From: a phage
Direction: 5' to 3' (one strand)
Sequence record: PX583170.1
Length of the DNA stretch: 56,260 nt
Each line of letters opens with the position of its first letter. The first letter of the stretch is position 1. Both the position numbers and the translations under genes were made by a program. The notes under the pieces were generated by a model that saw only the letters and a list, made by a program, of their open reading frames with translations, did not search any database and was not told the origin of the DNA. Of this stretch, positions 136 to 41,689 are shown piece by piece.

Positions 136-157
136 CCATTAGTTGGTTGTGATTATG
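136..157 (+). promoter_or_regulatory. Promoter-motif copy P1 (candidate phage-RNAP promoter) upstream of the RNAP gene
   Basis: ccATTAGTTGGttgtgattatg; shares the CATTAGTTG core with 13 other sites. Confidence 0.4.
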
Positions 158-214
158 AATAGGCTACGCAAGTCTAATCCGTTTCAGTTAAATCATAATC
201 AATTGGAGACTATC

Positions 215-2329
215 ATGACTAATGAAGAATATCGTGCACTGGCTGCTGATGGCGCTCGCTTAAAAGAAGAAGGCCACGGTTGGAAAGACGTGCTTGATAC
301 GATGGACCGTTGCAACCAAATGGTTGATGAAATCACTACTGCTACACAATCCGAAACTAAAACCGAAACTAACTTGGAGACTCGCAAAATGACAACTATC
401 TCAACTCAAACTATCAAATCCGTTGTCCCTGCTATCACGGCTCTGGTATACCGTGCTAAAGAGAAACAGAACTACATGCAGCCTCAGACCTGTGCTATTG
501 CTGCTCTTGCAATCTTCAAGATGATGACCTCATTCACTCGTGATGATGTTGTCCCAGCCATTGCAATGGTTGAGCTGGCTTCTGCTTCTATTGCTGATGC
601 CAACCGTTATAACAACGATTTGAAAGCAATGCACTATGTTGACCCAGCTATCAACCTCATTGGTTTGGCTAAGCACTTTGGCTTCATTACCATGAACGAA
701 GACAAGTCATTCCAACAAACTGATACATGGGTTGAACTGGTTACAACCAAAGACACAGCAGTGCCATTCACTGAGCGTGTTACATCTGAATCTCGTCGCA
801 AGCCTTTCGTTAAAGGTGGCAAAGTTAAGCCATCCAAAACTTTGAAAGCTGCAATCGAATTCCTGCAAGATACTGAGTACCATGTGGAGACTGAGATGGT
901 TCGCATCATCCAGTCCATGCTTGAGCAACGTACCTACGGTGGTTTGCAGATGCCAGAAGCAATCCAGACTGAACTTCATGTTTGGAACAATGCTGTAGCA
1001 ATGATGAATCAGGATAAGCTGTATTCTGACTACTTTGCTGATAACCGTGGTCGCCTGTATCATGTAGCATGTGCTGGCCCTAACCCACAATCCTCTGACT
1101 TTGCTCGTTGCTTGTATTCTCACAATGTTGAGAACATCGTTAAGAAGTTTAACGAAGATGGTTCTACTACCATCGCATACAACATGTTCATGGCAGAGCT
1201 GGAAGATATTTCTGGTGGTGAATGGTGCAGTGCTAAGCGTTTAACTTATGTTGCTCAGAATCCAGCTGGTTCACTTGCTCGCATGATGAACATGCCTAAA
1301 GCTGAACGTCCTTCCAAGCCATTCACTTATGTTCGTCTGGCTCTGGATTGGTTCAAGTTTGAGACTACAGGTGAGTGCGATTCTCGTGTAGGCTTTGGCT
1401 TAGATGCTAAATGTTCTGGTACTCAATATCTGGCATTCATTGCTGGTAACATGGAAATGGCTCGTGCAACAGGTCTGGTTGATTCTGAGACTAAAGCATC
1501 TGACCCATACCAGTTATCTCTTCGTGAACTGTTGAAGTTACTCGACCGTTCTTCAATGAAGCCATCTCCTGAAATCATGGATGAGTTCTTGAATCCGAAA
1601 GCTGGTCGTAAGTTTATCAAAACTCCATACATGGCTATCCAATATGGTGGTGGTAAAGCAGCATTGACTGGTTCTTCTGACTTCATTAGCTACATGACAG
1701 AAGCTCTCCAGATTCCTATGGAGAAAGCTGAGGCATTTGCTGAACTGTGTGTAGAAGCAATCCATAACGCATTGGGTGCTAAGATTAACATGTTCATCGA
1801 GAAAGCTGCTGATGCTGCATACAATCGTTGTGTTGAACTTGGCAAAGAGTACATCACATATCGCCACACTGATGGTCAGGTTGTAATGAAGCCTTGCTTC
1901 CCATCTCGTGAAATCTGTGAGGCATTCAGCATTCGTGTTGATAGTCAAACTCGTGTTATCTTTGGTCAGATTCAGGAGAACAAGCCTTGGACCATTCGTG
2001 AGTCCAATCCAACTAAAGAAGAGTTCAAGCGTACCTTCGTTGTTAACTACATCCAAGGTATTGACGCATTGGTTGCTCGTACTGTTGCAGTTAAAGCTAA
2101 AGAAGCTGGTCTTCGTGGCTTTACTTCAATTCACGATTGTTTCCGTTGCTGCTTAGCTGATGCTCCACGTATGATGGAAGTTATTCGTGCAGCATATGTT
2201 GAAATCTTCGTAACCAACAATCAATTCGAGAATCTGTCTAAGCAACTCGGTGGCATTCAGATGTATCATGAGAACATCGTAACCGAAGAGCTTCTGATGA
2301 GCGAACATGCTTACTACTTCTGTCAATGA
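215..2329 (+). CDS. T7-like single-subunit DNA-dependent RNA polymerase (ORF opens at 143; ATG at 215 has SD ggaga)
   Basis: Motif A-like FGLDAKCSGTQYLAF (T7 DGSCSGIQHF), motif B-like KFIKTPYMAIQYGGG, motif C-like TSIHDCF (T7 HDSF). Shorter than T7 RNAP. Confidence 0.85.
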   Translation: MTNEEYRALAADGARLKEEGHGWKDVLDTMDRCNQMVDEITTATQSETKTETNLETRKMTTISTQTIKSVVPAITALVYRAKEKQNYMQPQTCAIAALAIFKMMTSFTRDDVVPAIAMVELASASIADANRYNNDLKAMHYVDPAINLIGLAKHFGFITMNEDKSFQQTDTWVELVTTKDTAVPFTERVTSESRRKPFVKGGKVKPSKTLKAAIEFLQDTEYHVETEMVRIIQSMLEQRTYGGLQMPEAIQTELHVWNNAVAMMNQDKLYSDYFADNRGRLYHVACAGPNPQSSDFARCLYSHNVENIVKKFNEDGSTTIAYNMFMAELEDISGGEWCSAKRLTYVAQNPAGSLARMMNMPKAERPSKPFTYVRLALDWFKFETTGECDSRVGFGLDAKCSGTQYLAFIAGNMEMARATGLVDSETKASDPYQLSLRELLKLLDRSSMKPSPEIMDEFLNPKAGRKFIKTPYMAIQYGGGKAALTGSSDFISYMTEALQIPMEKAEAFAELCVEAIHNALGAKINMFIEKAADAAYNRCVELGKEYITYRHTDGQVVMKPCFPSREICEAFSIRVDSQTRVIFGQIQENKPWTIRESNPTKEEFKRTFVVNYIQGIDALVARTVAVKAKEAGLRGFTSIHDCFRCCLADAPRMMEVIRAAYVEIFVTNNQFENLSKQLGGIQMYHENIVTEELLMSEHAYYFCQ

Positions 2330-2370
2330 TATTAATTGGTCAAGGATGACCACAAACTTGGAGACTTATA

Positions 2371-2571
2371 ATGAACATTCAACAAATCAATCAAATCGAA
2401 AACTGTTTCAATCCTCATCATACCTGTGACATGAGCAACTTATCTCGTCCTACAGTGGAGGAGACTAAAGACTTCTTAGAATTGTTAGCAGAATATAAAC
2501 AAGAATCGCATGTACTATTGCATGCATATTTGCACAATTCTGGATACTTTGATACAGAAATACCGTTCTGA
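2371..2571 (+). CDS. Hypothetical small protein (66 aa)
   Basis: ATG with SD ggaga 8 nt upstream; followed by a terminator. Confidence 0.5.
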   Translation: MNIQQINQIENCFNPHHTCDMSNLSRPTVEETKDFLELLAEYKQESHVLLHAYLHNSGYFDTEIPF

Positions 2572-2576
2572 TATTT

Positions 2577-2603
2577 GGGAGCTTCGGCTCCCTTTTCTTG
2601 TTT
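2577..2603 (+). terminator. Rho-independent terminator
   Basis: GGGAGC-ttcg-GCTCCC perfect 6-bp stem with UUCG loop, then ttttcttgttt. Confidence 0.75.
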
Positions 2604-2623
2604 CAACTAAGTCGCATAACTCA

Positions 2624-2645
2624 GCATTAGTTGTATGTGAATCTA
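2624..2645 (+). promoter_or_regulatory. Promoter-motif copy P2
   Basis: gCATTAGTTGtATGTGAATcta, directly after the terminator and 22 nt before the next gene. Confidence 0.5.
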
Positions 2646-2666
2646 ATAAACCATTTGGAGCATATC

Positions 2667-2834
2667 ATGTTTACAGTGACCTTAGTAACCTATTATGGCA
2701 AGCAAGTTTGTGAGAAGTTTGAGACTTTGAAAGAAGCCCGTGAGTTTGCAGCTCGTGAAGAGAATATTTATGTAGACTGTGAAATCACAGATGGTGATAA
2801 GCAGTATGAAGTTGTAGCTCCTACACTCAACTGA
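2667..2834 (+). CDS. Hypothetical small protein (55 aa; ORF opens at 2631)
   Basis: ATG at 2667 preceded by tttggag SD; the earlier TTG start lies inside the promoter motif. Confidence 0.45.
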   Translation: MFTVTLVTYYGKQVCEKFETLKEAREFAAREENIYVDCEITDGDKQYEVVAPTLN

Positions 2835-2848
2835 TTCCCAATATTCGG

Positions 2849-2858
2849 ACAATATTGT
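2849..2858. promoter_or_regulatory. Perfect 10-bp palindrome ACAATATTGT (operator-like)
   Basis: Self-complementary; flanked by aatattcgg and gcatgtaatattgt. Confidence 0.35.
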
Positions 2859-2884
2859 TGCATGTAATATTGTCCCGATATTCG

Positions 2885-2906
2885 ACATTAGTTGGATATG
2901 AAGTAA
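2885..2906 (+). promoter_or_regulatory. Promoter-motif copy P3
   Basis: aCATTAGTTGGATATGAAgtaa; followed by hairpin CGGAG-aaata-CTCCG at 2913..2927; no gene for ~1 kb downstream. Confidence 0.45.
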
Positions 2907-3277
2907 AGAATACGGAGAAATACTCCGCATGACATATTGAATCATTCTAGAAACATTCAGCATGTCAGCTTTGAGTTACAGTGTTGTAATGATGTGGCAA
3001 TCATTGAACTCCCTGGGTAGGCCACCTACAGTTCCAGCAACCATGACACAGAGTAGGAATATCTATCCGAAACTTGTACTTCACCTATAGCATGTCTATT
3101 AGCTACAGTATTGTTCCTTCTCCTATTATCAAGGCCCACCCACAAGCCGGGAGATAACTTTGACAAGACTGGAACTTTTGGACATGCTTCTTTCTTTCTA
3201 CAAGAATTTGAAAGAAGAGAAGAAGTCGGACTAAGCCTCTCGTTTTCACGCAGAAGCCGCCCCGATTTTGAGCAACA

Positions 3278-3294
3278 AATATTGTGACAATATT
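3278..3294. promoter_or_regulatory. 17-bp inverted repeat AATATTGT-G-ACAATATT (operator-like)
   Basis: 8-bp arms are exact reverse complements; 51 bp beyond the repeat end at 3227. Confidence 0.4.
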
Positions 3295-3525
3295 GTCGCA
3301 GTATGGCATGTAAATATTGCTACAAATTGGCATGTTGGAATGTGGCAGAATTGTTAGAGGACTAATCACCTCGAAGATACAATCGTCTACCAATCTGGCA
3401 TGTTAATTTTGTAACAGTATTTGTGCCAATTTCGCATGTAATAGTTGTATCAGTAATGACCCAATATTCTTGCAACCCGCATGAATACTGGCTTCCAGCC
3501 AAGCGAAGGCTTTATCATCGCATGT

Positions 3526-3542
3526 AATATTGTGACAATATT
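3526..3542. promoter_or_regulatory. Second exact copy of AATATTGT-G-ACAATATT
   Basis: Identical 17-mer to 3278..3294. Confidence 0.4.
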
Positions 3543-3716
3543 GGGATAAAACCCTTTATTTAATTAGTTTTATTATGCTGTACATGGTCGGTTTTCCGTA
3601 CCTGCTTGCTCCAATCTTAATGTGCCAAATACGTTAAGTATGGGAGTAAACCTACGTGAACGTAGTGAACAATGACGCATGTTTAATTGTGACAAAATTC
3701 GTCTATTTGGCAGATG

Positions 3717-3735
3717 AATTAGTTGCAATTAAGCA
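3717..3735 (+). promoter_or_regulatory. Promoter-motif variant P4
   Basis: aATTAGTTGcAATtaagca; core retained, 3' half divergent. Confidence 0.3.
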
Positions 3736-3745
3736 TGTCCATTTA

Positions 3746-3767
3746 TCATTAGTTGCATGTGAATAAG
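3746..3767 (+). promoter_or_regulatory. Promoter-motif copy P5
   Basis: tCATTAGTTGcATGTGAATaag; ~190 nt upstream of the first gene of the unique region. Confidence 0.5.
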
Positions 3768-3955
3768 ACCAAATCTCTGTAAACTCTGCTGAAATTGTGT
3801 GACAGATTTTAGAGAGATTATGTCTCCAAGCTAATCATTGTAGTTTTTCGGCACTTGCTGTGTCACATACTCCCTACAACTTTAAGGTGGATTAAGGTAA
3901 GACAAGACCTCCACAATCGTTCTGTAGGGAGTTTTCCTTAACTTAGGAGAATAAA

Positions 3956-4174
3956 ATGACTCGTTTTAAAGATTTGGAAGATGGTGCAATCTTCTTTACG
4001 CGTGGTGGAGAACATCTGCAAAAAGTTTTGGAAGATGATGTTAATGTAAATGCTGTATTCGTTGGTGATTCTAACATTGGTGTTTTATTAAATGACAATG
4101 AGAGAACTTTTACAGAGGAGGAGTTTAAAGAAATCTCAGCCTCTGATTTAGTTCAAGAGCCAATTGAAGTTTAA
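3956..4174 (+). CDS. Hypothetical protein (72 aa)
   Basis: ATG with SD aggaga. Confidence 0.5.
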   Translation: MTRFKDLEDGAIFFTRGGEHLQKVLEDDVNVNAVFVGDSNIGVLLNDNERTFTEEEFKEISASDLVQEPIEV

Positions 4175-4189
4175 TACATAGGAGTAAAC

Positions 4190-4378
4190 ATGGACTTCAT
4201 CGTCTACTTTAAGTTAAATGGTGTGGAGCAAAGATTGTACTTCAATTCTTTACTTCGTTTGCAACAGTGGGCGGAGAAGTTTGTTGGGTATGACTTTGAA
4301 TACATTAACGCATGTACACCTGACGAACATGAAGAAATCGTGTTCAGTTCTTTAAATCAAATTCTGGAGGCCAAGTGA
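4190..4378 (+). CDS. Hypothetical protein (62 aa)
   Basis: ATG with SD aggag. Confidence 0.5.
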   Translation: MDFIVYFKLNGVEQRLYFNSLLRLQQWAEKFVGYDFEYINACTPDEHEEIVFSSLNQILEAK

Positions 4379-4539
4379 AGAAGCTCAAGTATATGACCAA
4401 AACTGTGTCATACATGGCAGCTTACGGTGCTTCAAAGAGACGTGCGAAGAAACTTGCAAAAGCTGCAAACCCTCGTATGCCAGCACGTAAGGTGGCTCAA
4501 ATCATCAATTCAGTATTCGACATATGGAGTATGAAATGA
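4375..4539 (+). CDS. Hypothetical small basic protein (54 aa, GTG start overlapping upstream stop)
   Basis: GTGA start/stop overlap with SD ggagg; Lys/Arg-rich; not in ORF track (<60 aa). Confidence 0.3.
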   Translation: MKKLKYMTKTVSYMAAYGASKRRAKKLAKAANPRMPARKVAQIINSVFDIWSMK

Positions 4540-4709
4540 ACGACCAGCAATTCAACACATTCATGCAGCAGATTAATCATCAAGAACTGATGGAAGCCAT
4601 CAAGGGCAAGAAGCCGGTTGAACGTCAATATCGTAAAATTGATAATTATATGCCAACAATCATTGCATGTGTTGGTGTTGCTATTGTTCTCTACTTCCTG
4701 GTGAAATAA
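4524..4709 (+). CDS. Hypothetical small membrane protein (61 aa)
   Basis: C-terminal hydrophobic stretch PTIIACVGVAIVLYFLV. Confidence 0.45.
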   Translation: MEYEMNDQQFNTFMQQINHQELMEAIKGKKPVERQYRKIDNYMPTIIACVGVAIVLYFLVK

Positions 4710-4802
4710 TGGACATTGTTAAGAAATTAGTATTCTGTATCGTAATGTTCCCTCTGGTGCTGCTCGTTGTGGGCAGCTTCTTAATCTGTTAATAGGTATC
4801 AC

Positions 4803-5096
4803 ATGTCAATTCAGAAATTCCTTGATGTAGCAAATGTTGCTAAGAATTCTATTCCAAGCAATCCCGATATTCTTACCTCAATGCGTGTTGATGTTGCACT
4901 TCTGGCTTTAGCTGGTGAGCACATCAATGCGCTTGAGAAGCAAGTTTCAGATTGCAAAAGTGAAATAACCACTTTGCGTGACCAGATTGCCAGCCAAGAA
5001 GCGGCATATTCTGACCTCATGGATGCGAAAAACCATTTACAGCAACGGCTTGCAGTTGCGCTTGAAGAAATAGACAGACTAACACTAACCAAATAA
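4803..5096 (+). CDS. Hypothetical protein (97 aa)
   Basis: ORF in the unidirectional early gene array. Confidence 0.45.
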   Translation: MSIQKFLDVANVAKNSIPSNPDILTSMRVDVALLALAGEHINALEKQVSDCKSEITTLRDQIASQEAAYSDLMDAKNHLQQRLAVALEEIDRLTLTK

Positions 5097-5111
5097 CAAT
5101 TGGGAGTTATT

Positions 5112-5375
5112 ATGGCTACTAAGACCGGAATGATGATTGTCCCAAGCCGTAATAACTCTTTAAGCGGCTTTACACCATATAAAATCTATGAAGTTATTTC
5201 TGGCACTGGTGAAGCAAACCTGTCAGAAGTTGCTTTGAAGTTGGGCCGTATGGTCCACTCCGAAATCTCCTGTAACGTAGTTGATGATGAAGGTAAAATC
5301 CGTTTTGTAACAATGGATTTCTTTCGTGAATTTAACCTCAAATCTGAGATAGGTGTTTTATATCATGAAATTTAA
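5112..5375 (+). CDS. Hypothetical protein (87 aa; ORF opens at TTG 5100)
   Basis: ATG at 5112 with SD gggag. Confidence 0.45.
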   Translation: MATKTGMMIVPSRNNSLSGFTPYKIYEVISGTGEANLSEVALKLGRMVHSEISCNVVDDEGKIRFVTMDFFREFNLKSEIGVLYHEI

Positions 5376-5592
5376 ATGTGTTGCTTCAACCAAAGATTAT
5401 GTTCCAGTTGGCTTCATCGTTGAAGGTGAAGCTATCTCACCTTTGGAATTTAAAGTGACTAAATCTGCTGAGAATGTTTCTCCAGCATTTCGTAAAGGTG
5501 CTGTAGTGCCTATGAATGGTGCATTCTGGACATGGCAGCGTGACCATGAAGCAGAATTTGCAGATATTTGTGAACAAGGTTTATTGCAATGA
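5365..5592 (+). CDS. Hypothetical protein, paralog of next gene
   Basis: Shares KFKCV-ST, VG-IEGE-I and WTW with the 5589..5819 product. Confidence 0.45.
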   Translation: MKFKCVASTKDYVPVGFIVEGEAISPLEFKVTKSAENVSPAFRKGAVVPMNGAFWTWQRDHEAEFADICEQGLLQ

Positions 5593-5819
5593 CAAAGTTT
5601 AAATGTGTGAAATCAACCTCTTCATCTGAGCACTCTCCGAAAGTTGGAGATGTGATTGAGGGAGAACTTATCCAAGTACACGGAGGTCGTGGATTCCGCC
5701 ACAGAGTGCTTATTTCTAAAGATAGTGACCGAAAAATGCCAGACGGTAAGCCATACTTTTCACTTGGTGAAACAGTTCCCTTAGAAGGTAGTGTTTGGAC
5801 TTGGAAAGAGGTTAAATAA
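5589..5819 (+). CDS. Hypothetical protein, paralog of previous gene
   Basis: MTKFKCVKST...VGDVIEGELI...WTW. Confidence 0.45.
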   Translation: MTKFKCVKSTSSSEHSPKVGDVIEGELIQVHGGRGFRHRVLISKDSDRKMPDGKPYFSLGETVPLEGSVWTWKEVK

Positions 5820-5882
5820 TTTCCTCAACCACTTTTGTAATGAGAGTGGTTGCTGAATATTATTAATCAACTTGGAGCATTT

Positions 5883-6173
5883 ATGAAACAACGTACTCGT
5901 TTACAGCGTGACCCCGCCACAGGCCGCTTGTTACCAGCATATTTGAAAGTTGGTGACTTAGTTTACACTCGTGACTTTGCTTTTGACATTTGCCCAAGCA
6001 AAGCATATAAAGTTCTTGCCACCAGCTTGTCTGGACCTAAAGTAATATTTGGTTCACTTGAGCCAATTCAGCTGACCGGAACCCAATTCGTCATTAAGGA
6101 TGAATCTGGCTGTAACCGAATCTTTAGCCTTGAAGGTGGCCTATCCAAATGGGAGAAGATTAAGCGTGGGTAA
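5883..6173 (+). CDS. Hypothetical protein (ORF opens at 5850)
   Basis: ATG at 5883 with SD ttggag; upstream 8-bp-stem hairpin at 5826..5852. Confidence 0.45.
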   Translation: MKQRTRLQRDPATGRLLPAYLKVGDLVYTRDFAFDICPSKAYKVLATSLSGPKVIFGSLEPIQLTGTQFVIKDESGCNRIFSLEGGLSKWEKIKRG

Positions 6174-6186
6174 GAACTACATAGAA

Positions 6187-6399
6187 ATGTTTAAAAGACT
6201 CGATATCAATGGACAAGAGTTCTTGTTAAACGATGCAAGACAAGATGTGGAGCTGTCTGATAAATATAGCTCCTCGTATCAGAGAACCATTGTAAAATGG
6301 ACGTTCTCTTACATATCCTACAATCTTCCAGGAGAAACGCTTGTGATTAGTGGTTCTGGAGATTCAGTTTTGGCAGCTTTGGAGAAACTAAAGCAATGA
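6187..6399 (+). CDS. Hypothetical protein (ORF opens at 6100)
   Basis: First ATG after the upstream gene stop. Confidence 0.35.
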   Translation: MFKRLDINGQEFLLNDARQDVELSDKYSSSYQRTIVKWTFSYISYNLPGETLVISGSGDSVLAALEKLKQ

Positions 6400-6683: not shown

Positions 6684-6723
6684 ATTAACAAGGAGCATTC
6701 ATTGAGTGTTCCTGATTAATCTA

Positions 6724-6745
6724 ACATTAGTTGAATGTGAATAAC
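6724..6745 (+). promoter_or_regulatory. Promoter-motif copy P6
   Basis: aCATTAGTTGaATGTGAATaac, 18 nt before the next gene. Confidence 0.5.
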
Positions 6746-6762
6746 AACTTTTGGAGGTATTT

Positions 6763-7284
6763 ATGTTTTACACTGGTGTGGGAAGTCGTGAAACTCCCGG
6801 GCATATTTGCGAACTGCTGACTAAAGTGGCTTCCAAACTGGCCAGACTTGGTTGGGTAGTTCGTACGGGAGGTGCTCAAGGTGCTGACGAAGCATTCCTG
6901 GCTGGCTGCAACGGAAGGACAGAGAACTTTATACCTTGGAATGGTTTTGGAAGTTATGGTGGCGTAGTGCCGGACCTGAATCGAAATTGGGAATACCTGC
7001 AAAGTGTTGAAAACGTAAACCCGCTAATTCACAAGAAAGAGACAAGAAACCTCGACAAATACAGAGGATTTTGGAAACTACAGGCACGAAATGTTAGTCA
7101 GGTACTTGGGCTTAACTTGGACACTCCATCCAAGTTCTGTATCTTGTACGCTCCGACAACATCAACTGGTGTGAGCGGTGGCACCAACACTGCGTACCAG
7201 GTTGCAATGCAGTCTGGAATACCTTGTTTTAACTTATTCGACCCTGCTATAGTGGCAAGGTTTGAGAAATTTATATCTGAGTGA
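6763..7284 (+). CDS. DprA/LOG-like (SLOG superfamily) Rossmann-fold protein, tentative
   Basis: YTGVGSRETP ... VVRTGGAQGADEAF resembles the DprA Rossmann core as recalled; SD ggagg. Confidence 0.3.
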   Translation: MFYTGVGSRETPGHICELLTKVASKLARLGWVVRTGGAQGADEAFLAGCNGRTENFIPWNGFGSYGGVVPDLNRNWEYLQSVENVNPLIHKKETRNLDKYRGFWKLQARNVSQVLGLNLDTPSKFCILYAPTTSTGVSGGTNTAYQVAMQSGIPCFNLFDPAIVARFEKFISE

Positions 7285-7319
7285 TTATCAGGGTGCATTT
7301 ACGAGTGTACCCGAATAAT

Positions 7320-7340
7320 CCAATTAGTTGGATAAGAGGG
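7320..7340 (+). promoter_or_regulatory. Promoter-motif variant P7
   Basis: ccAATTAGTTGGATaagaggg. Confidence 0.35.
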
Positions 7341-7409
7341 ACAAAGCTATTCCGTGGTTAGCAATGTCGCTGAAACTTAAACTGTAATTAACTTAAGAGA
7401 ATCTTAATC

Positions 7410-11308: not shown

Positions 11309-11377
11309 TTCCAGGCGGGTTTCTTCGAAGTGCCAAGCGGGTTTTGTGCTCGCATTGGCCTTCGGCTTTAGTCTGAA

Positions 11378-11399
11378 ACATTAGTGGGATTTGATTCGG
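11378..11399 (+). promoter_or_regulatory. Promoter-motif variant P8
   Basis: aCATTAGTgGGATttgattcgg. Confidence 0.35.
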
Positions 11400-11517
11400 A
11401 CCACTTAGGGAAGAAAGGCATTATACACTTATCGCCAAATGGGTGTCAAGCACTTTCTTCATTTATTTAATTTATTCTTATTATTCTTTTTGTTTGGAAT
11501 ATTGGAATAATTCTGAA

Positions 11518-11539
11518 ACATTAGTTGGAATTGAATTAG
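11518..11539 (+). promoter_or_regulatory. Promoter-motif copy P9
   Basis: aCATTAGTTGGAATTGAATtag, with prefix ttctgaaa shared with P8 and P12. Confidence 0.45.
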
Positions 11540-11654
11540 TGTAATTCTGTCTGTACTCTTTTCCATTAGCAATTGTAGAGGAAGTCCACTGCAATAAGCG
11601 CAGCCTCAAACAACCAAGTCTGGACAACTTGGGAAGAGAGTGCAGCACAAAATT

Positions 11655-11676
11655 ACATTAGTTGGAATTGAAGAAA
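11655..11676 (+). promoter_or_regulatory. Promoter-motif copy P10
   Basis: aCATTAGTTGGAATTGAAgaaa. Confidence 0.45.
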
Positions 11677-12309
11677 CAACATCAGATAATAACTTTGTAA
11701 CTCGGTAGACCGTTGCGGCCGCATCGTGCGAGAATGTTCGACTCATTCTACAAAGTTATTTTCGATGGAATGTTTCCATCATATACATTTATCTTTTAAC
11801 ATAGGCCAAAGGGCCGGAATACTTATTCGCAGAAAAGCTATTCACTTGTTATAGGCGATGTATTGGGATGAATTGGAACTAAATAAGCAAGCTGTTAGGG
11901 CTGAATAATTAGAGGGTTATGCCTCATGCTTATGTTAGTCATTCGAAAATAGGTTTGTGCCACAAGCCGCTGGTGCTCTGAGGAAGTCGGACAAACAGGG
12001 CTTAGAGTGGCATAATCCGCACAAAACCGCGCCACCAGCTATGCCAAAGCAGGTGGTTTGGGTGAATGTATTGGGAAGGGTTGCAAAGCCTCTGTGACAC
12101 GCCTGAGCCGCAAGGCGACGACACTCATGTGATTAGCGTATCGCACCCTAACGGGAGTAACCCTTCGCCAATGCAGTTATCCAGAATTGACACAAACGGC
12201 AGGCAGTGGCCCGATTTTCGGCCCTCCTGCGCTGCCCTGTGGCCTGTTTCACGGGCTAAAAGATGAGAAGAGAAGTCACAAACACTGAATCGAAAATTGG
12301 AGAGTTCCT

Positions 12310-12621
12310 ATGATTCGCAAGCATTCTGCTAAAGTTTTGACGTTGAGAAATGTAGTCAGGGGGGACCATGAGGTTTCCCTACACTATGTACTAATTGGTG
12401 GTCGTTGGTATTACAATGGCTCCTCATATATGGCCTTTATATCCTCCTCTGATAAGGACGGATTTTGGACCGATAAGGGTATCAAAGGTGTGTTAGAAGA
12501 TAGCTTCCCACTCACGTTAAAGGAAGTAAAAGACGTCTTCTACCACGGCCCAAACAAGTCCATGCAAATCGCAACTCGCGAGTGGACAACTAATCAAGAA
12601 GTTTACGGAGTCCCATTTTGA
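12310..12621 (+). CDS. Hypothetical protein (103 aa)
   Basis: ATG with SD ttggagag. Confidence 0.5.
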   Translation: MIRKHSAKVLTLRNVVRGDHEVSLHYVLIGGRWYYNGSSYMAFISSSDKDGFWTDKGIKGVLEDSFPLTLKEVKDVFYHGPNKSMQIATREWTTNQEVYGVPF

Positions 12622-12908
12622 ACTTACAAGATAAATCCAAAGAAGAGCTGATTGAGATTATCCAGAAAGAGCACGAACTCGCTGGAATCACAATTAACTT
12701 TGAACTCCAGGCAATGCAAGCTGTTGCTTTGGGTCATGGTCTAATGGCTACACTCATTCATGCCAAGAATGTGTTAGGCGTTGACAACGAAAAATACCAA
12801 ATTCTGGAGAAAGCTGCGCAAGAGCGGATTTCGCAGTGCTTGGTGACATTAGTTGATTTGGGAATCGACGCAGAAACTGCGAACAAACGTATCCTACAAG
12901 GCCACTAA
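12618..12908 (+). CDS. Hypothetical protein (TTG start overlapping upstream stop)
   Basis: TTGA start/stop overlap. Confidence 0.4.
   Translation: MNLQDKSKEELIEIIQKEHELAGITINFELQAMQAVALGHGLMATLIHAKNVLGVDNEKYQILEKAAQERISQCLVTLVDLGIDAETANKRILQGH
12846..12867 (+). promoter_or_regulatory. Promoter-motif copy P11 (inside the 3' end of the preceding gene)
   Basis: aCATTAGTTGatttgggaatcg, 43 nt before the next start. Confidence 0.35.
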
Positions 12909-12909: not shown

Positions 12910-13584
12910 ATGTCTTATCATGATGATGACAAAGAGATTGCACTATCAACGTGTAAGCAATGGCTCAATGATAATGATGCCGTCTATCTTGCCAAGGAAG
13001 ATGTTATCATTATGTGGGTCCATTTTAATCCAGAATCGAAGCGCGGTGAGTGGCAACGCTACAAGATGAAAGAGGCTTGTCGCATAATTAAAGCCACACG
13101 CGCTGGCTTCTCTGCTATGAAGTACATTAAGCCAGAGATGCTGATGCTTGCTGCACAGGAAGAAGAACGTGCGTATAAGCAAGCTGTTAAATCTCGTTCA
13201 ACTGTTCCCCCAGAGTTCTTTAATTTGGAGCGCGCTGGACACTTCAACAATTTAGAAATGTTGACACTGTGCCTGTTGCAAGAATTAGTTGGAAGAGGAC
13301 AAAACATTGAAGCTGTTTGTCTTGGAGAACTCATGAAAGAGTTGTTCTCGGCAAAGGGCTTTGCTGTGCCAAATCGAACTTTACGCTGGAAATTGTTGCG
13401 AGCAGTCGCGCAAGAAGCTGGTGTAGTTGTTCGTGACAGAACAAACCGACTCACTGTAACTGGAGTTGGGCGTTTTGTAGCAATCCAGATTGAGGGTTAT
13501 GACGAATCAATCATCACTGAACTCACTGTCGCTGAGACAAAGGATTTAGTAAATAAAACACTAGAACGATTCAATAGATATTGA
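12910..13584 (+). CDS. Hypothetical protein (224 aa; ORF opens at 12853)
   Basis: ATG at 12910, 2 nt after upstream stop. Confidence 0.5.
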   Translation: MSYHDDDKEIALSTCKQWLNDNDAVYLAKEDVIIMWVHFNPESKRGEWQRYKMKEACRIIKATRAGFSAMKYIKPEMLMLAAQEEERAYKQAVKSRSTVPPEFFNLERAGHFNNLEMLTLCLLQELVGRGQNIEAVCLGELMKELFSAKGFAVPNRTLRWKLLRAVAQEAGVVVRDRTNRLTVTGVGRFVAIQIEGYDESIITELTVAETKDLVNKTLERFNRY

Positions 13585-13613
13585 GTCGTTTGACGAATCA
13601 GAGCAGTTCTGAA

Positions 13614-13635
13614 ACATTAGTTGGATGTGGAAAGA
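13614..13635 (+). promoter_or_regulatory. Promoter-motif copy P12
   Basis: aCATTAGTTGGATGTGgAAaga. Confidence 0.5.
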
Positions 13636-13707: not shown

Positions 13708-14046
13708 ATGGCTAAGATTGTAACCGTAACTCAGTACGAAGCTAACGATGGTTCCCTGTTCCTGACCGAAGCAGAGTGTAATGCACATGACTTCAAACTG
13801 GAAAACGGTGCTAAAATTGAGAAAGCTGCCGAAGCGTACCTGAATACCGTTGGTGCTATCGACCGTTCTCGCTCCATGCAGAAGAACACCATCGAGCAGT
13901 TCCTGGCATTCTACCTGCCGTGGGTTGAAGCTGGCGAGCCAGAAGTTGAGCGTACTAAGTTCGATACTCCGAAAGAAGCTAAAGTTGCTGACGCAAGTGT
14001 TGCCGAAGCTGCCGAAGCTGCTGTTGAAGAAGCTCCGGTATTCTAA
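13708..14046 (+). CDS. Hypothetical acidic protein with host-like codon usage (112 aa)
   Basis: SD aaggta; CTG/CGT/GAA/CCG-rich; acidic C-terminus ending EEAPVF. Confidence 0.55.
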   Translation: MAKIVTVTQYEANDGSLFLTEAECNAHDFKLENGAKIEKAAEAYLNTVGAIDRSRSMQKNTIEQFLAFYLPWVEAGEPEVERTKFDTPKEAKVADASVAEAAEAAVEEAPVF

Positions 14047-14413
14047 GTTGCCGATGGCAAACTTGAGAGACTAAGCTAAATCGATCTGGCATGCACTGGA
14101 AGATCGTCCGGTGCTGCCTTGAACCCGCTCTGAAAGGAAGAGTGGGCTTCAATGAGCATTCTTGTGATTAGAGTTGGGAGGAAGGCCGATGCCCAAGCTC
14201 ATGGCCCAGACGAGAGTGTTCATTGAAGTTATTTCAATTTGTGCATAATTCAAACACCAGTGCATGAGCCTTCGACGGAAGGCAATGTTGGGAAATTTGT
14301 TGTGTACAAATTGAAGTAGTTTTCTGAGTCTTACGACGGGCCTAAACTGCCTGGAGTTATTGCGACTGTTTTATTCATTTAAAATAAATGCAAATGATTC
14401 TGAAATGCGAGTT

Positions 14414-14711
14414 GCGGCTTAATTAAATTTAAGTCCTCTCCGTGGTCTTCCAATCCCACGTAACCAAATTTGGCGCATTGTGGCTTCGAGATGTGATTAA
14501 TAAATCGGAGCAATAATTAATTTGTATTCTGCGATGCAATGCAGGCTTAAGTCCTCCAGTGCGCGTGGGGATGTGACAGAGTACAAACTTAATTATTAAT
14601 TTGTATTCTGGTGTTGTTCGCCAAGATTGGTGCACTCATGATTGGTAGTGTTGGGGAGCGCGGAGCCTAAAATATTATGTGGCATCTCCTACCAGAGTAC
14701 AAACTTAATTA
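14414..14711. repeat. Degenerate tandem copies of a ~70-120 bp non-coding element
   Basis: Exact repeats: ttaagtcctc (14429, 14547), attaatttgtattctg (14516, 14595), cagagtacaaacttaatta (14577, 14693). Confidence 0.6.
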
Positions 14712-15147
14712 TGCAGTTGGATATTTCTAGAGGACGGACGAGCACACTGGAATGTCTTCAATTGGTTTAGTGTGAGAAGCTATGCCAATTTGAAACGTAA
14801 CTCCTTGAGGAAGTGCTCCTCTGGATTTCCCTCCACACAGGAATCTCAAGCCTGTGGCAGTGACTTCGAAGCTGCACTGCGTAACCTAATTCACCCTAAA
14901 GTGAGTTGCCCTGAGCATGGAAATAAACTGCTCAAACCAATGATGCCCACAAAGGTGGGATAAGTTAGGTTGCCTGTTGGTACTTGGGTTCAACACCTGC
15001 TTGCACTCGCAAAGTAGTGCCTCGTACCTGAGATGAAGTGAGTCGGGACCATCAATCCCACGTTATGTCAAAACACAGTAGGCGGCTCACAGATTCTACA
15101 AGCCTCGCAGTTCGGGAAAACCTGCGTTATCAAAACCCACCCAATTT

Positions 15148-15240
15148 GGACGAGTAGCTCAGAAGGTCTGCTCCAGAGCTTAGTCAGGTAGAGCAATCTG
15201 TTCGACAGATGTGTCGTTGGTTCGAATCCAACCTCGTCCA
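15148..15240 (+). tRNA. tRNA-like gene, unusually long (93 nt); anticodon tentatively CAG (Leu)
   Basis: Perfect 7-bp acceptor stem GGACGAG/CTCGTCC, canonical T-arm GTTGG-TTCGAAT-CCAAC, discriminator A; loop GTCAGGT at 15183..15189; the D-arm could not be folded by eye. Confidence 0.5.
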
Positions 15241-15269
15241 CCCACTTTCAACAATAACATGGAGTCCTC

Positions 15270-15410
15270 ATGGACATTGATGCACTAGACAATTTGGACT
15301 TCGGTGCTGCCGAAGAAGCCATTGAAGAACTAAAGAAAAAGCAGGACGAAGAAGCAATCGTTCCTGGTGCTGGCGATAATGACTGCTCAAGCGGTGCGTG
15401 TGCCATCTAA
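15270..15410 (+). CDS. Hypothetical small acidic peptide (46 aa)
   Basis: ATG with SD ggag; ends GAGDNDCSSGACAI; below the ORF-track cutoff. Confidence 0.3.
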   Translation: MDIDALDNLDFGAAEEAIEELKKKQDEEAIVPGAGDNDCSSGACAI

Positions 15411-15418
15411 GGTGATTT

Positions 15419-15655
15419 ATGCAACAGCTTAAATCAGTAATTCTTGGCGTCCTGACTGCATTTGGCATTCTTATTGCAGTGTTCCTCAAAGGCAAAAGCT
15501 CAGGCAAAGCCGAGGAGCGTCAGGAAGCCACAGAGAAGCAACTAGATTCATTAAAAGAATCTATCGAGATTAAATCGCATGTTCAGAAAGAAGTGTCTAG
15601 CAGTTCTGATAGCAATGTCGATAGTGAGTTGCTCTCAAAGTGGGTTCGTAAGTGA
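15419..15655 (+). CDS. Hypothetical small membrane protein (78 aa)
   Basis: N-terminal hydrophobic segment VILGVLTAFGILIAVFL. Confidence 0.4.
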   Translation: MQQLKSVILGVLTAFGILIAVFLKGKSSGKAEERQEATEKQLDSLKESIEIKSHVQKEVSSSSDSNVDSELLSKWVRK

Positions 15656-16625
15656 TTACTGCTTGATTGCACAACCAATTTATTTGGATGTTGCAGAAGT
15701 AAAAATCTTATCACGCGAAACCAAAACACAGATTTTAGTCCACAATGAAACGTGGGCACAAAAGTGTTCGAAACTTACCCGACAGTGAGTTGAACAAAAT
15801 GCTCGCCATCGCATGAACAACATTTGGCAGTCCGGTACGGGACTTTAAACACACGTATATCATAGTCGAGGGAGTGCGCGACTTTAAATAACGAGACTCT
15901 AGCCACTTGTGGTATGGCAGGTGTAACTCCTGCAATTGCTCTGGGCATAACAATTAAAATTGCTGCCTCGTATTGAACGCGAGAAAGTTCAGGTAGTCAC
16001 TTCCTAGAACAGTGGCCGGGAACATACCTAGACAAAAGTGCTTGAGAACGTTAGCTCTGTCTTGCCAGCATTAATGGCACGTTGGCCGCGTAAAGGCCAC
16101 AGCGTCTGGCCAACGTATCGGCCACCAAATTCAATGGGCTAGTGCAAATGTCAGTCACTAGAAGATGTGTTGCAAAACGTCTTCCACGATGTGCAAAGTG
16201 TCAGTCACGTGCCCGCCAATTTCCTCCAACAGTTATGCCTCTGTTCAAAAGGCTCAAGAGAGCGTCTGGCATACCGTAGCGATACGGCTTAGTTGCGCTG
16301 ATTGTGTTGTGCAGAAAGAAAGTTCAGGCTTTCGTTTGGGTTACTCCTCATCCCGAAGTTAGCTGGATTCAAAATCCAGACTATGTTCCTATACACATGA
16401 AATATGCAAGTCGAGGGTTCTTAATGTTCAAACATGATGCGAGCATTAAGCGGGTTTATACTTTTCCCCGATGGTCCCCATAAACAAGGCTGATTCACTT
16501 GGGCGGTTCGAATCAAATTTAATAAGTGTCTTGGCCGCAGTGGAAACATCATTTAAGCCAATGTATTGTAATGTTCGTAATAGTCCACGTCAGGACACTT
16601 ACTTAAATTTTAACTGGAGAGAAAC

Positions 16626-21331: not shown

Positions 21332-21603
21332 TGAAAATTGTATATTCTATTTACGATATGCAGGAGTTAGAGCACCATATGTTTGCTACTGATTCCGAAG
21401 TTCTCGCAAAGGACGCTGTAATGGCGTTTCTTGAAAAGATTAAGGGCAACGTATTCGCTTCGTCCGACCCACAGTCTCAAGCACTTAATGACGAAACATT
21501 TAAAAACATCCAAACTTTAATCTCGGCAACGACTTCGATTGAAGAGCTGTCCGAAGTATTAGTTGGATATGACTTCCAGCTTGCAATGTTGCAAGTTGAT
21601 TAA
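21331..21603 (+). CDS. Hypothetical protein (90 aa)
   Basis: TAATG overlap with the polymerase stop. Confidence 0.45.
   Translation: MKIVYSIYDMQELEHHMFATDSEVLAKDAVMAFLEKIKGNVFASSDPQSQALNDETFKNIQTLISATTSIEELSEVLVGYDFQLAMLQVD
21556..21577 (+). promoter_or_regulatory. Promoter-motif copy P13 (inside the 3' end of the preceding gene)
   Basis: gtATTAGTTGGATATGActtcc, 58 nt before the next start. Confidence 0.4.
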
Positions 21604-26419: not shown

Positions 26420-26605
26420 ATGCGCACAATACAATGTCCTAACTGCCACTATGAAATTGCAGAAGATGATTTCATAACGCAGCAATGTCCTATCTGTGAT
26501 TCATATATGCCACTAAACCGCCTGTATTTAAAGGCCGATTCTGGTTTAGGCAGCATCATTCGCATCAATCCCGTGCAAACTCAGCCATTAGTGGATTGTG
26601 ATTAA
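26420..26605 (+). CDS. Small zinc-ribbon protein (61 aa)
   Basis: CPNC-x17-CPIC. Confidence 0.45.
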   Translation: MRTIQCPNCHYEIAEDDFITQQCPICDSYMPLNRLYLKADSGLGSIIRINPVQTQPLVDCD

Positions 26606-28857: not shown

Positions 28858-30466
28858 ATGACTTCCAAGAAGAAAAACAATCTCTCTGTTAAAGTTGCAG
28901 ATGGGTTAGAAAACCTTGTAACGGGGTTGGGCGGTCAGGCAGATAAGTCCACTTTTAACCAGTGGACTTTCTCAAACAAGAACGCGAACTATCGCGAACT
29001 TATGAACCGCTTCCGTGAGGACTGGGTTGCACAGAAAGTGTGTACCGTCATTCCTCAAGATATGACGCGTAAGTGGCGGCATATTGATACCGAAGAAGGA
29101 CGCAAAGCGGATAAGAAACTTCGTATTCGTAAGCTGTTCCGTGAGGCGTATCAATGGGCCAGGTTGTATGGTACTTCGTTTGTTCTGCTCGACCGCGAAC
29201 TTATGAACCGCTTCCGTGAGGACTGGGTTGCACAGAAAGTGTGTACCGTCATTCCTCAAGATATGACGCGTAAGTGGCGGCATATTGATACCGAAGAAGG
29301 ACGCAAAGCGGATAAGAAACTTCGTATTCGTAAGCTGTTCCGTGACTCAAGATATGACGCGTAAGTGGCGGCATATTGATACCGAAGAAGGACGCAAAGC
29401 GGATAAGAAACTTCGTATTCGTAAGCTGTTCCGTGAGGCGTATCAATGGGCCAGGTTGTATGGTACTTCGTTTGTTCTGCTCGACCTAAAAGGTACGGGC
29501 AAACTTGATACACCATTGCGACTGGATAACTTGAAGACTGGATGTATTAAATCCATGAGAGTTATTGACCGCTCACGCTTATTTGCCGCAGGGACTATGG
29601 TTCTGGACCCTTTGAGTCCTCACTATGGTTTGCCAGAGTATTACACTTTGGCTGGGTATCCCGGCTATATCCACTACACTCGTTTCCTTCGGTTCGAGGG
29701 TACTGAACTGCCGCTGTTCGAATTCCAACGCAACATGTGGTATTCTGATTCGGTACTTATTCCACTGCTGAAAACGATTGACCAATTCTACACAACTGCC
29801 GCTGCTGCTGCCAGCCTTGCCCAAGAAGCCACTATTGATGTGGTAACTGTTGAAGGCTTACAATCTCTGCTTACATCACCGGAAGGTGAAGCTGCTGTGA
29901 TGAAGCGCTTCAAACTCATGAAGCTGGCAAAGAGTATTTATAACGTCTTAATTCTCGACAATACGGAGAAGTATGACACCAAGTCAATTGCACTATCTGG
30001 TGTGAAAGATTTGATTTGGGAATACTTGAAGATAGTTGCTGCCGCAGTTGGTATTCCGGCTACACGTTTCCTTTCTGCATCTCCAGACGGTATGAATGCT
30101 ACGGGCGAATCTGACCTCGTAAACTATATCGACTTGTTGACTGGCTTGCAGACTTCTGTGTTCGACCCTCGTTTAGATGTGGTAGACAAGATTGTCCAGG
30201 CGCACTTTGGCATTGAAGAATATAACTACGAATGGTTAGATATCTTCCCTGAATCCAATGTTGAGAAAGCGAAGCGAGCTAAAGATTTGGCATTTGCTGT
30301 TGACCTGCTGGTTAACAACGGTACTATTACTACCGAAGTTGCAAACGAAGTCATGTTCCATTCGGGCGTGTTCGGAACTTGTGACCTTGGCAAACCAAAT
30401 CCTAATCCTCCTAACATCCAAAAGGGTAACGCAAGTGAAGCAAAACCAAAACCTGGTTCAGCTTAA
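28858..30466 (+). pseudogene. Putative portal gene split into two ORFs (28858..29364 and 29285..30466) by a scrambled tandem duplication
   Basis: Removing 29194..29485 (292 bp) gives one continuous 438-codon ORF; portal call is by position after TerL only. Confidence 0.5.
28993..29485. repeat. Scrambled tandem duplication: full 201-bp unit, then two partial copies
   Basis: Unit 28993..29193; copy 29194..29345 matches unit bases 1-152; copy 29346..29485 matches unit bases 62-201. Confidence 0.9.
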
Positions 30467-36814: not shown

Positions 36815-36824
36815 GGTGCGATAA

Positions 36825-37280: not shown

Positions 37281-37291
37281 TTGGAGTAAGT

Positions 37292-37750: not shown

Positions 37751-37909
37751 TATCCCTGTTCCCCGACATAAAATATTTTCTGCATCGTCCTATAATCGAA
37801 GACAGTTCTCTCTGCAAGCTACATGAGTTGCAAGATGGAACCTATTCGATTATGGACTTATTGCTATTCCACGACATTCTCGATTTGCGTAAGAAACTCG
37901 AACCAGTAG

Positions 37910-40900: not shown

Positions 40901-41635
40901 GACTTTGCCGAAGGTATGGCCCAATCGGAAATGTTGCAGGGAAGCCGCGCACGGATGCTGCCAAGCTACAACGTGCCACAAAGTGTCTTATCTAATGGTG
41001 CTTCTGTATTTGAGGCTGGCAGTGATGCACTTGACGGTGTACGCACTGGACTGAATAAGACGCGAGAATTTGCTGGAAATGTTTACGACTTTATCGCTCA
41101 AGAGGAATCTGGCGGTCGTGAATATAATAAAGATGGTTCTCGTGTAACAAGTCGCACTGGTGCTCGTGGGATAATGCAGATTCTCCCTTCGACTGCCCGT
41201 GACCCAGGATTTGGAATCAGGCCGTCTGATGGAACTCCAGAAGATGATGCACGAGTTGGTCGTGAATACTATGACGCAATGTACAAGCGTTATGGCGACC
41301 ACGAAAAGGCAATGGCTGCTTACACCGATGGTCCTGGCACTGTTGACAAAGCTGTCGATAAGAATGGATTGGATTGGCTAACTGCTGTTCCTGTACAAGC
41401 ACAGAATCGCGTCAAAGCATTCCGTGAATGGTCCAAGTCTTCTCAATCTTTGGAAGAAGGTGCTACAGGGTTTACTCGTAATGGAATGTCATACGGTCAA
41501 ACCCAAACTGTTGTTAATGTTAAGATTGATGCTAAGGTCAACAACCAAACTGCTTCTGCTACAGTTGCAATTCCTGGTGGTCAGACTGTGACTCAACAAA
41601 TGAACATGAACAACGGTGCGCAACAAAGAAGGTAA
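37910..41635 (+). CDS. Tail tape measure / internal tail protein with C-terminal lytic transglycosylase (SLT) domain
   Basis: 1,241 aa; Gly-rich segment GGGYSGGGGGRGGNF; SLT-like QEESGGREYNKDGSRVTSRTGARGIMQILPSTA. Confidence 0.65.
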   Translation: MKTMANQKDLMKLSVNELIALGSQSGLTFHAGMKKSHMVQQLSASAASGWLDTNAELMGGSFEDDSLITESLGDSSMISDAAHIAQVLSSAGYTEAFHAAMNGPSHHVEAVHAYMERLGVSTDDVWMHMPKPNPNLPQGNFNMLNAYMRDTLQGHQDIMPEIPGHYAGDIMAEYSTNRGNIADSYNYMAHMYVDREQYSNHEQYARDISRVAKRLERELPSAFKEVGYTSASNVGNKSAPHISYMDALPQIGSPSIVSGIAHPRAPLNASGLPLGSYGSGINPEYSLTASLTGGTGWSEPSKALYSSISEAVKSAAKVYSGSKGMLNTRHEVSDRDMIMDSATRYTDLEEARSGYENLRSELADEPAYSASSVRAILENTYDKMDAEPVRIPKMKGASQRVDKDSLSTSTDFTAQLGEATNWNSARMRREELAIANMDSAGFRDVSDYGTGRSKSPVRFHDLEQGSQEWLDFRKNYDITGSTVGTFLGNNPYTRPWAGMIDKIGLSRSKEHSDFTKKMFADGHRTEEEARARVSKEFGFDIKQTGAITNDNYPAFMYSPDGLIGDDAIWEHKNPQRAGKFADLLKGDHPDYMDQIQFGMHVSGRSRALFSQTINDETRSQWIEKDEGWYERNRNRLDSVLGRLDAGREFVRNNAGLGREELIAGARSAMTGDGIWKDIRQKSTRGYSAVAGTPEDPFIGSRSSYNPEASYSDYKPNFVMHEQNFPATTGNGDTGNDSMALSVKKGILAAQEENRQKGIGADADFDGKADSMGWNRERFDAANGGGYSGGGGGRGGNFTSGGNYYDDYGRMGGSLAAGIAGGSIGSATNGVMQALMATPAGRMAAVGIGAIQIGNEAAEYMNDFIGNSLDAGVINPNEYSSMSQGLEMLGLNSQQAARLNQTTHSAYNTLLNGDPSAAVNIVRGSRGLLTIGDIRATGGDPVALARIMQERGKERGWSQARIAGAAEMAGLNGMARAYDRTEYSHEQAGSVVEAGRNSDFAEGMAQSEMLQGSRARMLPSYNVPQSVLSNGASVFEAGSDALDGVRTGLNKTREFAGNVYDFIAQEESGGREYNKDGSRVTSRTGARGIMQILPSTARDPGFGIRPSDGTPEDDARVGREYYDAMYKRYGDHEKAMAAYTDGPGTVDKAVDKNGLDWLTAVPVQAQNRVKAFREWSKSSQSLEEGATGFTRNGMSYGQTQTVVNVKIDAKVNNQTASATVAIPGGQTVTQQMNMNNGAQQRR

Positions 41636-41641
41636 GGAGTT

Positions 41642-41667
41642 GGGGAGAAATCCCCAGCTTTCCTTTT
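41642..41667 (+). terminator. Rho-independent terminator after the tape measure gene
   Basis: GGGGA-gaaa-TCCCC stem with GAAA loop, then agctttcctttt. Confidence 0.6.
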
Positions 41668-41689
41668 ACATTAGTTGAATATGTATTAA
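41668..41689 (+). promoter_or_regulatory. Promoter-motif copy P14
   Basis: aCATTAGTTGaATATGTAttaa, 20 nt before the next gene. Confidence 0.5.

Follow-up and report, generated by a model that had tools for sequence, protein, structure and literature searches.

A 20-bp motif as candidate promoter of the phage-encoded single-subunit RNA polymerase in a phiEcoM-GJ1-like myophage of Escherichia coli

Promoters of the T7 type (T7, T3, SP6, K11; Autographiviridae) are contiguous elements of about 20 bp, co-oriented with the genes, located in intergenic regions, found in terminator-promoter pairs and read by an RNA polymerase (RNAP) with the T7 fold. T7 transcripts start between TATA and GGGAGA, and those of SP6 between TATA and GAAGAG. 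For the Chaseviridae, the ICTV profile (2022) gives the promoters as unidentified. Predictions exist for two members: in GenBank EF460875 (phiEcoM-GJ1; Jamalludeen et al. 2008) nine 20-mers are labelled 'putative phage promoter 1-9', and a hypothesised set of eight consensus promoters has been published for Pectobacterium phage PP101 of the same subfamily (Lukianova et al. 2020, PMC6989608). In this study, a dispersed motif of about 20 bp was analysed in the complete linear genome of a phiEcoM-GJ1-like E. coli myophage (sequence record PX583170.1). The whole stretch of 56,260 bp is the window, and all coordinates refer to it.

Megablast placed the phage in the genus Carltongylesvirus (Chaseviridae, Cleopatravirinae), with the Escherichia phages flopper, TH53, ST32 and phiEcoM-GJ1 as top matches (87-94% identity across the first 12 kb). 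All long open reading frames (ORFs) are on the + strand. An exact direct terminal repeat (DTR) of 3227 bp covers 1-3227 and 53,034-56,260, and the 53,033 bp before the right repeat are referred to as unique sequence. The gene of a single-subunit RNAP is the first gene and lies within the DTR, and is therefore present in two copies per genome.

The motif has the consensus aaCATTAGTTG(G/A)(A/T)(T/A)nTGA(A/T) (strong-copy sequence aaCATTAGTTGGATGTGAA), and its information content is limited to some 18-20 contiguous positions. Thirteen strong copies were found in unique sequence, all of them on the + strand, with three further copies in the right DTR. Indexed by the C of CATTAG, the strong sites are 137, 2625, 2886, 3747, 6725, 11379, 11519, 11656, 12847, 13615, 21557, 26586 and 41669. 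A scan of both strands with a weight matrix had been proposed earlier as a check for strand bias; with a matrix built from the sites, the + strand of unique sequence gave 13 matches of at least 20 bits and the - strand none of at least 16 bits, while the next match on the + strand scored only about 12 bits. CATTAGTTGG with at most one mismatch was matched 23 times (4.1 expected), 18 of these on the + strand. For the 17-mer CATTAGTTGGATGTGAA with up to three mismatches, all 14 matches were on the + strand against 0.25 expected, and none of 100 shuffles gave a count as high. Apart from the motif, an all-against-all 18-mer scan gave no dispersed repeat family, the other repeats being a palindrome family restricted to non-coding regions and codon-repeat noise.

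The same motif had been noticed in a reading of this DNA from its sequence alone, in which fourteen copies were numbered from one base before the C of CATTAG. The motif is indeed present, but two of the reported copies are weak (3717 and 7320) and the strong site 26586 had been missed. The copy at 3717 scores below 9 bits and is without the invariant G15 (see below). The three copies said to recur in the right repeat were located at 53170, 55658 and 55919 within the exact 3227-bp DTR.

Comparison with phiEcoM-GJ1 showed the same 20-mer consensus (nnACATTAGTTGGATGTGAA), the same strand and orthologous positions. The GJ1 promoters 1-9 correspond to sites 2886, 3747, 7322, 11379, 11656, 13283, 13615, 21557 and 41669 of the window. 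Since this candidate has been in GenBank since 2008, the present work is a confirmation with comparative support and not a discovery, and the promoter finding is a correct rediscovery of an existing, unvalidated prediction. The two genomes also carry some differences. The strong sites 137, 2625, 12847 and 26586 are unannotated in GJ1 although they are present in its sequence. Two copies of the phage studied here, at 6725 and, in the tandem group, at 11519, are additional to those of GJ1, and the promoter copy before its SSB gene (7322) is decayed. The region 6722-7338 shows an apparent promoter turnover, with the strong site 6725 before the DprA-like gene and the SSB copy decayed relative to the intact GJ1 'promoter 3'. 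For PP101, identity of its hypothesised promoters with the motif can be presumed, as the motif occurs at syntenic positions in PM1, a close relative.

The centres of 8 of the 13 strong sites fall in the 12.9% of non-coding DNA (binomial p = 5e-5), as determined on a deliberately generous ORF map (87% coding), and the other centres lie within the last 65 nt or less of ORFs. An equal frequency on the - strand or a random placement in coding sequence, which the sequence-only reading had named as evidence against promoters, was not found in either respect. Its placement of two sites in the 3' ends of upstream genes was right for 12847 and 21557, and 26586 is a further such case. The genes 3' of the sites encode the RNAP, small early proteins, the DprA-like protein, SSB (degenerate site), the terminase large subunit and the baseplate hub. 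The sites stand upstream of genes or gene blocks, as had been described: with +1 at G15, the leaders would measure 24-79 nt, each with a Shine-Dalgarno-like sequence, and one more would measure 195 nt. Two sites directly follow terminators, again in line with the earlier description (hairpin 2577-2592 before 2625, hairpin 41636-41661 before 41669), and for the second pair the order of terminator and motif is kept in four genera. The tandem copies 11379, 11519 and 11656, spaced by 140 and 137 nt, are located in an ORF-poor region of about 1 kb. Known RNA families or tRNAs were not found in the long non-coding stretches which follow some of the copies.

Copies at syntenic positions were identified in phiEcoM-GJ1, Sabourvirus 4HA13, Loessnervirus Y2, Suwonvirus PM1 and Myducvirus PA_03, the common positions being before and after the RNAP gene, before SSB, before the gene at 13.7 kb and after the tape-measure gene. 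In the motif-anchored cross-genus comparison, mean identity was 0.77 within the motif against 0.35-0.39 in the flanks, and T4, A5, G9, T14 and G15 were invariant. Neither the weight matrix nor the cross-genus alignment revealed a second conserved box downstream. The copy before the RNAP gene has orthologs in GJ1, 4HA13, Y2, PM1, Proteus phage PA_03 and the metagenomic contig L013. The motif could also be followed into more distant relatives. The metagenomic contig L012 (RNAP 54% identical) keeps TTAGTTGG and has lost the leading CA; L015, an element integrated in a Hafnia alvei chromosome (RNAP 52% identical), carries 13 TTAGTTG cores, every one of them on the + strand; and L013, with an RNAP only 39% identical, has eight copies of CATTAGTTGATAATGGA on the + strand, none on the - strand and one of them directly before its RNAP gene. 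The motif was absent from the three lineages sampled as Aeromonas phage pAh6-C, Vibrio phage VPs20 and the metagenomic contig L014.

The catalytic motifs of the phage RNAP align weakly to those of T7 RNAP. An AF2 model built from a 46-sequence alignment reached a pLDDT of 88.4, with residues 1-62 poorly modelled, and T7 RNAP was its top Foldseek match (E 1.6e-19, TMq 0.55). By its predicted fold, the protein models as a T7-type single-subunit enzyme. Because residues 1-62 are poorly modelled and most homologs have 631-647 aa, the conserved core probably starts at the ATG at 389. Positions 215-388 encode a 58-aa in-frame N-terminal extension (pLDDT 30-69), which is missing from most homologs; a correspondence with the small ORF before the 4HA13 RNAP gene was rejected, as the two have no similarity. 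The segment FSIRVDSQTRVIFGQ..KPWTIRE (approximately residues 572-598) precedes the helix aligned to T7 residues 777-791, which is the position of the T7 specificity loop. This segment is kept in the motif-bearing lineages, and RVDxxTRVIFG is also found in L013. In L014 and the Nefertitivirinae-like group, the two motif-less lineages in which the loop was compared, the putative specificity loop reads FSIRYTQNTIISFG or FSIFLGSGEKMHFG instead of RVDxxTRVIFG, with RYTQNTIISFG in the Nefertitivirinae-like group.

Taken together, the motif is very likely the promoter of the phage-encoded single-subunit RNAP. The proposal of phage RNAP promoters made in the sequence-only reading is thereby supported in silico, by the 13:0 strand distribution, the placement before genes, the contiguous and unstructured form, the cross-genus footprint, the predicted T7 fold of the RNAP and, tentatively, the loop pattern. 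By analogy with T7 RNAP, the enzyme would bind duplex DNA via the near-invariant upstream block CATTAGTTG, recognition being probably performed by the specificity-loop-like beta-hairpin around residues 572-598. The variable tetranucleotide at positions 11-14 would then melt and initiation would occur at the invariant G15, giving a promoter from about -16 to +4 with CATTAGTTGGATGT before the start and GAAg from the start onwards. Positions 11-14 are AT-rich, T14 and G15 do not vary, and in the L013 lineage the sequence is ATAAT followed by GGAGA. An AT-rich tetranucleotide followed by a conserved G and purines is also the pattern of T7 and SP6. The thirteen promoters would divide the one-directional genome into transcription units comprising the RNAP gene (with positive feedback), the early small genes, the block of the DprA-like and SSB genes, the two repeat-rich non-coding regions, a terminase-to-tape-measure unit and a baseplate-to-lysis unit, with intrinsic terminators immediately 5' of two of the promoters.

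Besides the features shared with T7-type systems, some differences were observed. The conserved block ends about 14-16 bp 5' of the inferred start, compared to 17 bp in T7, and the RNAP core, whose N-terminal domain is much shorter, has about 646 aa instead of 883 aa. Unlike in T7-type systems, a candidate promoter is situated directly before the phage's own RNAP gene, and this gene comes first in a myovirus genome and is contained in a 3.2-kb DTR.

Several points weigh against the promoter assignment. The late genes (about 31 kb) have only three copies, which are the least consensus-like of all, the reverse of the situation in T7 with its strongest promoters among the late ones. The copies within coding sequence (12847, 13283 and 21557) may in part be conserved for protein reasons. 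Similarity to the T7, T3, SP6 and K11 promoters is loose and confined to an ATTAG-like stretch (SP6, K11), and +1 at G15 is inferred only by analogy. The distribution of the motif and of the putative specificity loop is consistent with co-variation of the two, as compared in few independent lineages and with the loop placed by alignment position only. As for a replacement in motif-less relatives, a repeat search in VPs20 gave nothing usable and k-mer counts in L014 gave weak candidates only. No transcript 5'-end mapping, RNA-seq, in vitro transcription or RNAP biochemistry was found for any Chaseviridae member in the accessible literature. A literature search with the motif string returned no phage paper among the 20 top-ranked of 171 matches.

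An alternative in which the motif is the box of a phage adaptor or activator that redirects the host RNAP, like the T4 MotA box, while the phage RNAP reads another, undetected signal, was considered unlikely. Such a box would also be strand-specific and placed before genes, and most early genes are without known function; but no -10-like element is conserved at a constant spacing downstream, no part of the genome is enriched in sigma-70-like sites, no other dispersed motif is available to serve the phage RNAP, and the RNAPs accompanied by the motif share one loop type, in phages with otherwise different early genes. A direct reading as sigma-70 promoters was rejected, as the motif is not bipartite and none of the three segments has promoter-like sites in excess of the shuffle expectation. 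The sigma-70 consensus scan overlapped 2 of the 13 copies, both at the minimum of 9/12, and did not call the other 11.

Even less probable is an action of the motif as RNA, i.e. as a processing site or a stability or translational element in mRNA leaders. Its location on the transcribed strand 5' of start codons would fit, but folds around six sites gave no shared stem-loop including the motif, which is not self-complementary, and z-scores were about 0 at most sites. Moreover, the distance to the start codon varies from 38 to more than 200 nt, the copies 2886 and 11379-11656 precede hundreds of nucleotides without a gene, and little or no upstream transcript is expected for the two copies directly after terminators and the one located 137 nt from the genome end. 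Hairpin promoters of the N4 type, terminators and RNase III or other processing sites were rejected on the same lack of a shared fold across the sites. A similarly small probability was given to a role of the motif at the DNA level, in replication, recombination or packaging, or as a sequence-specific site at which the RNAP pauses or terminates. Copies do cluster beside repeat-rich non-coding regions (2883-3955, 11376-12300) which are possible replication origins, and T7 has sequence-specific class II termination signals. The copies nevertheless span 41 kb, always just 5' of gene starts, and a pause or stop signal would have no obvious purpose right after an intrinsic terminator or before the first gene. 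Promoters that prime replication, of the kind found in the T7 primary origin, would agree with the reading as phage RNAP promoters and do not compete with it.

The features of the window are listed in Table 1. For the weak internal copy at 13280-13299, which all genera examined have kept, with stronger versions in PM1 (21 bits) and Proteus phage PA_03, the sequence comparison leaves two explanations: it could act as a promoter within the gene, or it could merely result from a conserved peptide or coding constraint.

Table 1. Motif copies, terminators, sigma-70-like sites and the RNAP gene in the window
Feature	Coordinates	Strand	Score	Remarks
Motif upstream of RNAP gene (left DTR)	134..153	+	27.5 bits	TACCATTAGTTGGTTGTGAT; inferred +1 = G151
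Single-subunit RNAP gene (left DTR copy)	215..2329	+		Pfam PF00940
Intrinsic terminator-like hairpin (2577-2592) + T tract	2577..2600	+		directly before site 2625
Motif, 42 nt 5' of small gene 2667-2834	2622..2641	+	26.5 bits	1 mismatch vs 17-mer
Sigma-70-like overlap, copy 2886	2882..2911	+	9/12	TCGACA-18-AAGAAT
Motif heading ~1-kb non-coding, repeat-rich region	2883..2902	+	26.8 bits	GJ1 'putative phage promoter 1'; syntenic in 4 genera
Motif, ~209 nt 5' of early small-gene cluster (from 3956)	3744..3763	+	26.9 bits	GJ1 'promoter 2'
Motif, 38 nt 5' of DprA-like gene 6763-7284 (PHROG 768)	6722..6741	+	30.9 bits	top-scoring site
Degenerate copy 5' of SSB gene (site 7322; earlier 7320)	7319..7338	+	6.2 bits	GJ1 'promoter 3', intact there at 7044-7063
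Tandem copy 1 of 3	11376..11395	+	27.3 bits	GJ1 'promoter 4'
Tandem copy 2 of 3	11516..11535	+	28.5 bits	
Tandem copy 3 of 3	11653..11672	+	25.2 bits	GJ1 'promoter 5'
Sigma-70-like overlap, copy 11656	11662..11690	+	9/12	TTGGAA-17-GATAAT
Copy in 3' end of ORF 12618-12908, 63 nt 5' of gene 12910-13584	12844..12863	+	20.4 bits	identical in GJ1 at 12357, unannotated there
Weak internal copy in gene 12910-13584	13280..13299	+	9.2 bits	AAGAATTAGTTGGAAGAGGA; GJ1 'promoter 6'
Motif, 93 nt 5' of gene 13708-14046	13612..13631	+	27.7 bits	GJ1 'promoter 7'; syntenic in 4 genera
Copy in 3' end of ORF 21331-21603, 78 nt 5' of gene 21635-22501	21554..21573	+	22.7 bits	GJ1 'promoter 8'
Copy 39 nt 5' of terminase large-subunit ATG 26625 (PHROG 38)	26583..26602	+	23.0 bits	identical in GJ1 at 26984; in 4HA13 at 27895
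Intrinsic terminator (hairpin 41636-41661) after tape-measure gene	41636..41668	+		directly before site 41669
Motif, 40 nt 5' of baseplate-hub gene 41709-42818 (PHROG 196)	41666..41685	+	24.9 bits	GJ1 'promoter 9'
Sigma-70-like site TTAACG-18-TATTAT	52958..52987	+	9/12, weak	46 nt before right DTR
Right-DTR copy of site 137	53167..53186	+		
Right-DTR copy of site 2625	55655..55674	+		
Right-DTR copy of site 2886	55916..55935	+		

The motif copy directly before the RNAP gene is kept in all motif-bearing lineages examined, which implies positive autoregulation. A consensus scan of positions 1-214 gave no sigma-70-like site on the + strand, and the 136 nt upstream of the left-hand copy contain no recognisable host promoter. 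The weak site at 52958-52987, the only recognisable or annotated candidate, is the ortholog of a GJ1 feature (364-393) labelled 'putative host sigma70 promoter'; it lies outside the right DTR and therefore, in virion DNA, would serve only the right-hand copy of the RNAP gene. The first RNAP molecules would probably be produced by the host RNA polymerase from this site, on the right-hand copy, a concatemer or a recombined genome, and such a host promoter is a plausible but unproven answer to the question, raised in the sequence-only reading, of how the polymerase is first expressed. There is only a slim chance that RNAP expression is essentially self-driven, seeded by RNAP carried in the virion (N4-like) or by the right-end copy after full entry; if true, this would be a minimal (about 646 aa), self-amplifying transcription system with a compact promoter (about -16 to +4), distinct from the T7 paradigm. 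Three direct repeats of the type (A)CGAGACT(N)GAAT are located at 52905-52990 just before the right DTR junction and overlap the TTAACG-18-TATTAT site, and a GC-rich hairpin, GGGCCAGCGGGGAGGGGAAGCCC, is found at the junction itself.

The non-coding DNA around the DTR boundaries carries further elements. About 12 nt 3' of site 2886, a hairpin (CGGAGAAATACTCCG, 2911-2927; z = -3.1) is shared with 4HA13 and PM1; it may form a structure in the leader RNA. The 17-bp palindrome family, AATATTGTGACAATATT and variants, often preceded by GCATGT, is found only in the non-coding DNA flanking the boundaries (2836-3760 and 52684-52990); 11 of the 19 + strand copies of GCATGT in the genome lie within 2860-3755. 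Both phiEcoM-GJ1 and 4HA13 have this palindrome family too, and it could represent operator sites or replication-origin iterons. In the T7 primary origin, the RNAP gene is followed by phage promoters and then by an AT-rich non-coding stretch, and the region 2836-3760 resembles this layout in its arrangement of RNAP gene, promoter-like sites and non-coding stretch. The first approximately 60 nt of the genome (GACTTAAAATACGGTCCCT...GCCTATCGGCTT; 1-70) are kept in Erwinia phage Y2 (1-70), a similarity which fits a conserved terminus or packaging signal.

Some observations were also made on the relatives and on the rest of the genome. Phage pAh6-C (L011, Nefertitivirinae), which is without CATTAGTTG, has five or six + strand copies of the hairpin-like repeat GGCTCTNCGAGCC followed by AAAG, at 23716-25090 and 28884 and mostly in the non-coding region 3' of its RNAP gene; this repeat could be its promoter or another signal. 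The L015 element (Hafnia alvei GCA_002206365.2, NJFP02000002.1, 2778075-2800021) has its RNAP gene beside integrase, holin and ArdA genes and is flanked by host genes, and an integrase-like gene is also present on contig L012 (18330-19304). On the basis of these genes and of the chromosomal setting of L015, relatives of these supposedly strictly lytic phages may be temperate or integrated. In L013, a gene for S-adenosylmethionine lyase and an 800-bp non-coding region precede the RNAP gene (3594-6156), and the core motif CATTAGTTGA is still used; the early-gene layout of this lineage resembles that of T3. The stretch 14047-16164 of the window is long and ORF-poor and matched no Rfam family. No tRNA was found in the genome, whereas phiEcoM-GJ1 and ST32 have a tRNA-Arg in the equivalent region. 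The portal gene is apparently split (28858-30466), ORF 28858-29364 matching only the N-terminal part of portal families, and copies of GGCATATTGATACCGAAG, most of them followed by AAGGAC, lie near 29076, 29279 and 29370; this hints at a duplicated or inserted segment or at a problem of the assembly.

The additions made here to the existing prediction are the full site list, the cross-genus footprint, the distant and integrated relatives, the absence of the motif where the loop differs and a start-site hypothesis. The Chaseviridae are myoviruses with a T7-type RNA polymerase, and the motif provides a concrete promoter candidate for them. Its confirmation would provide the whole subfamily with a transcription map and would add a case of an RNAP gene under its own promoter, and the small polymerase-promoter pair, different in sequence from the T7 and SP6 promoters, would be a possible tool for synthetic biology or in vitro transcription.

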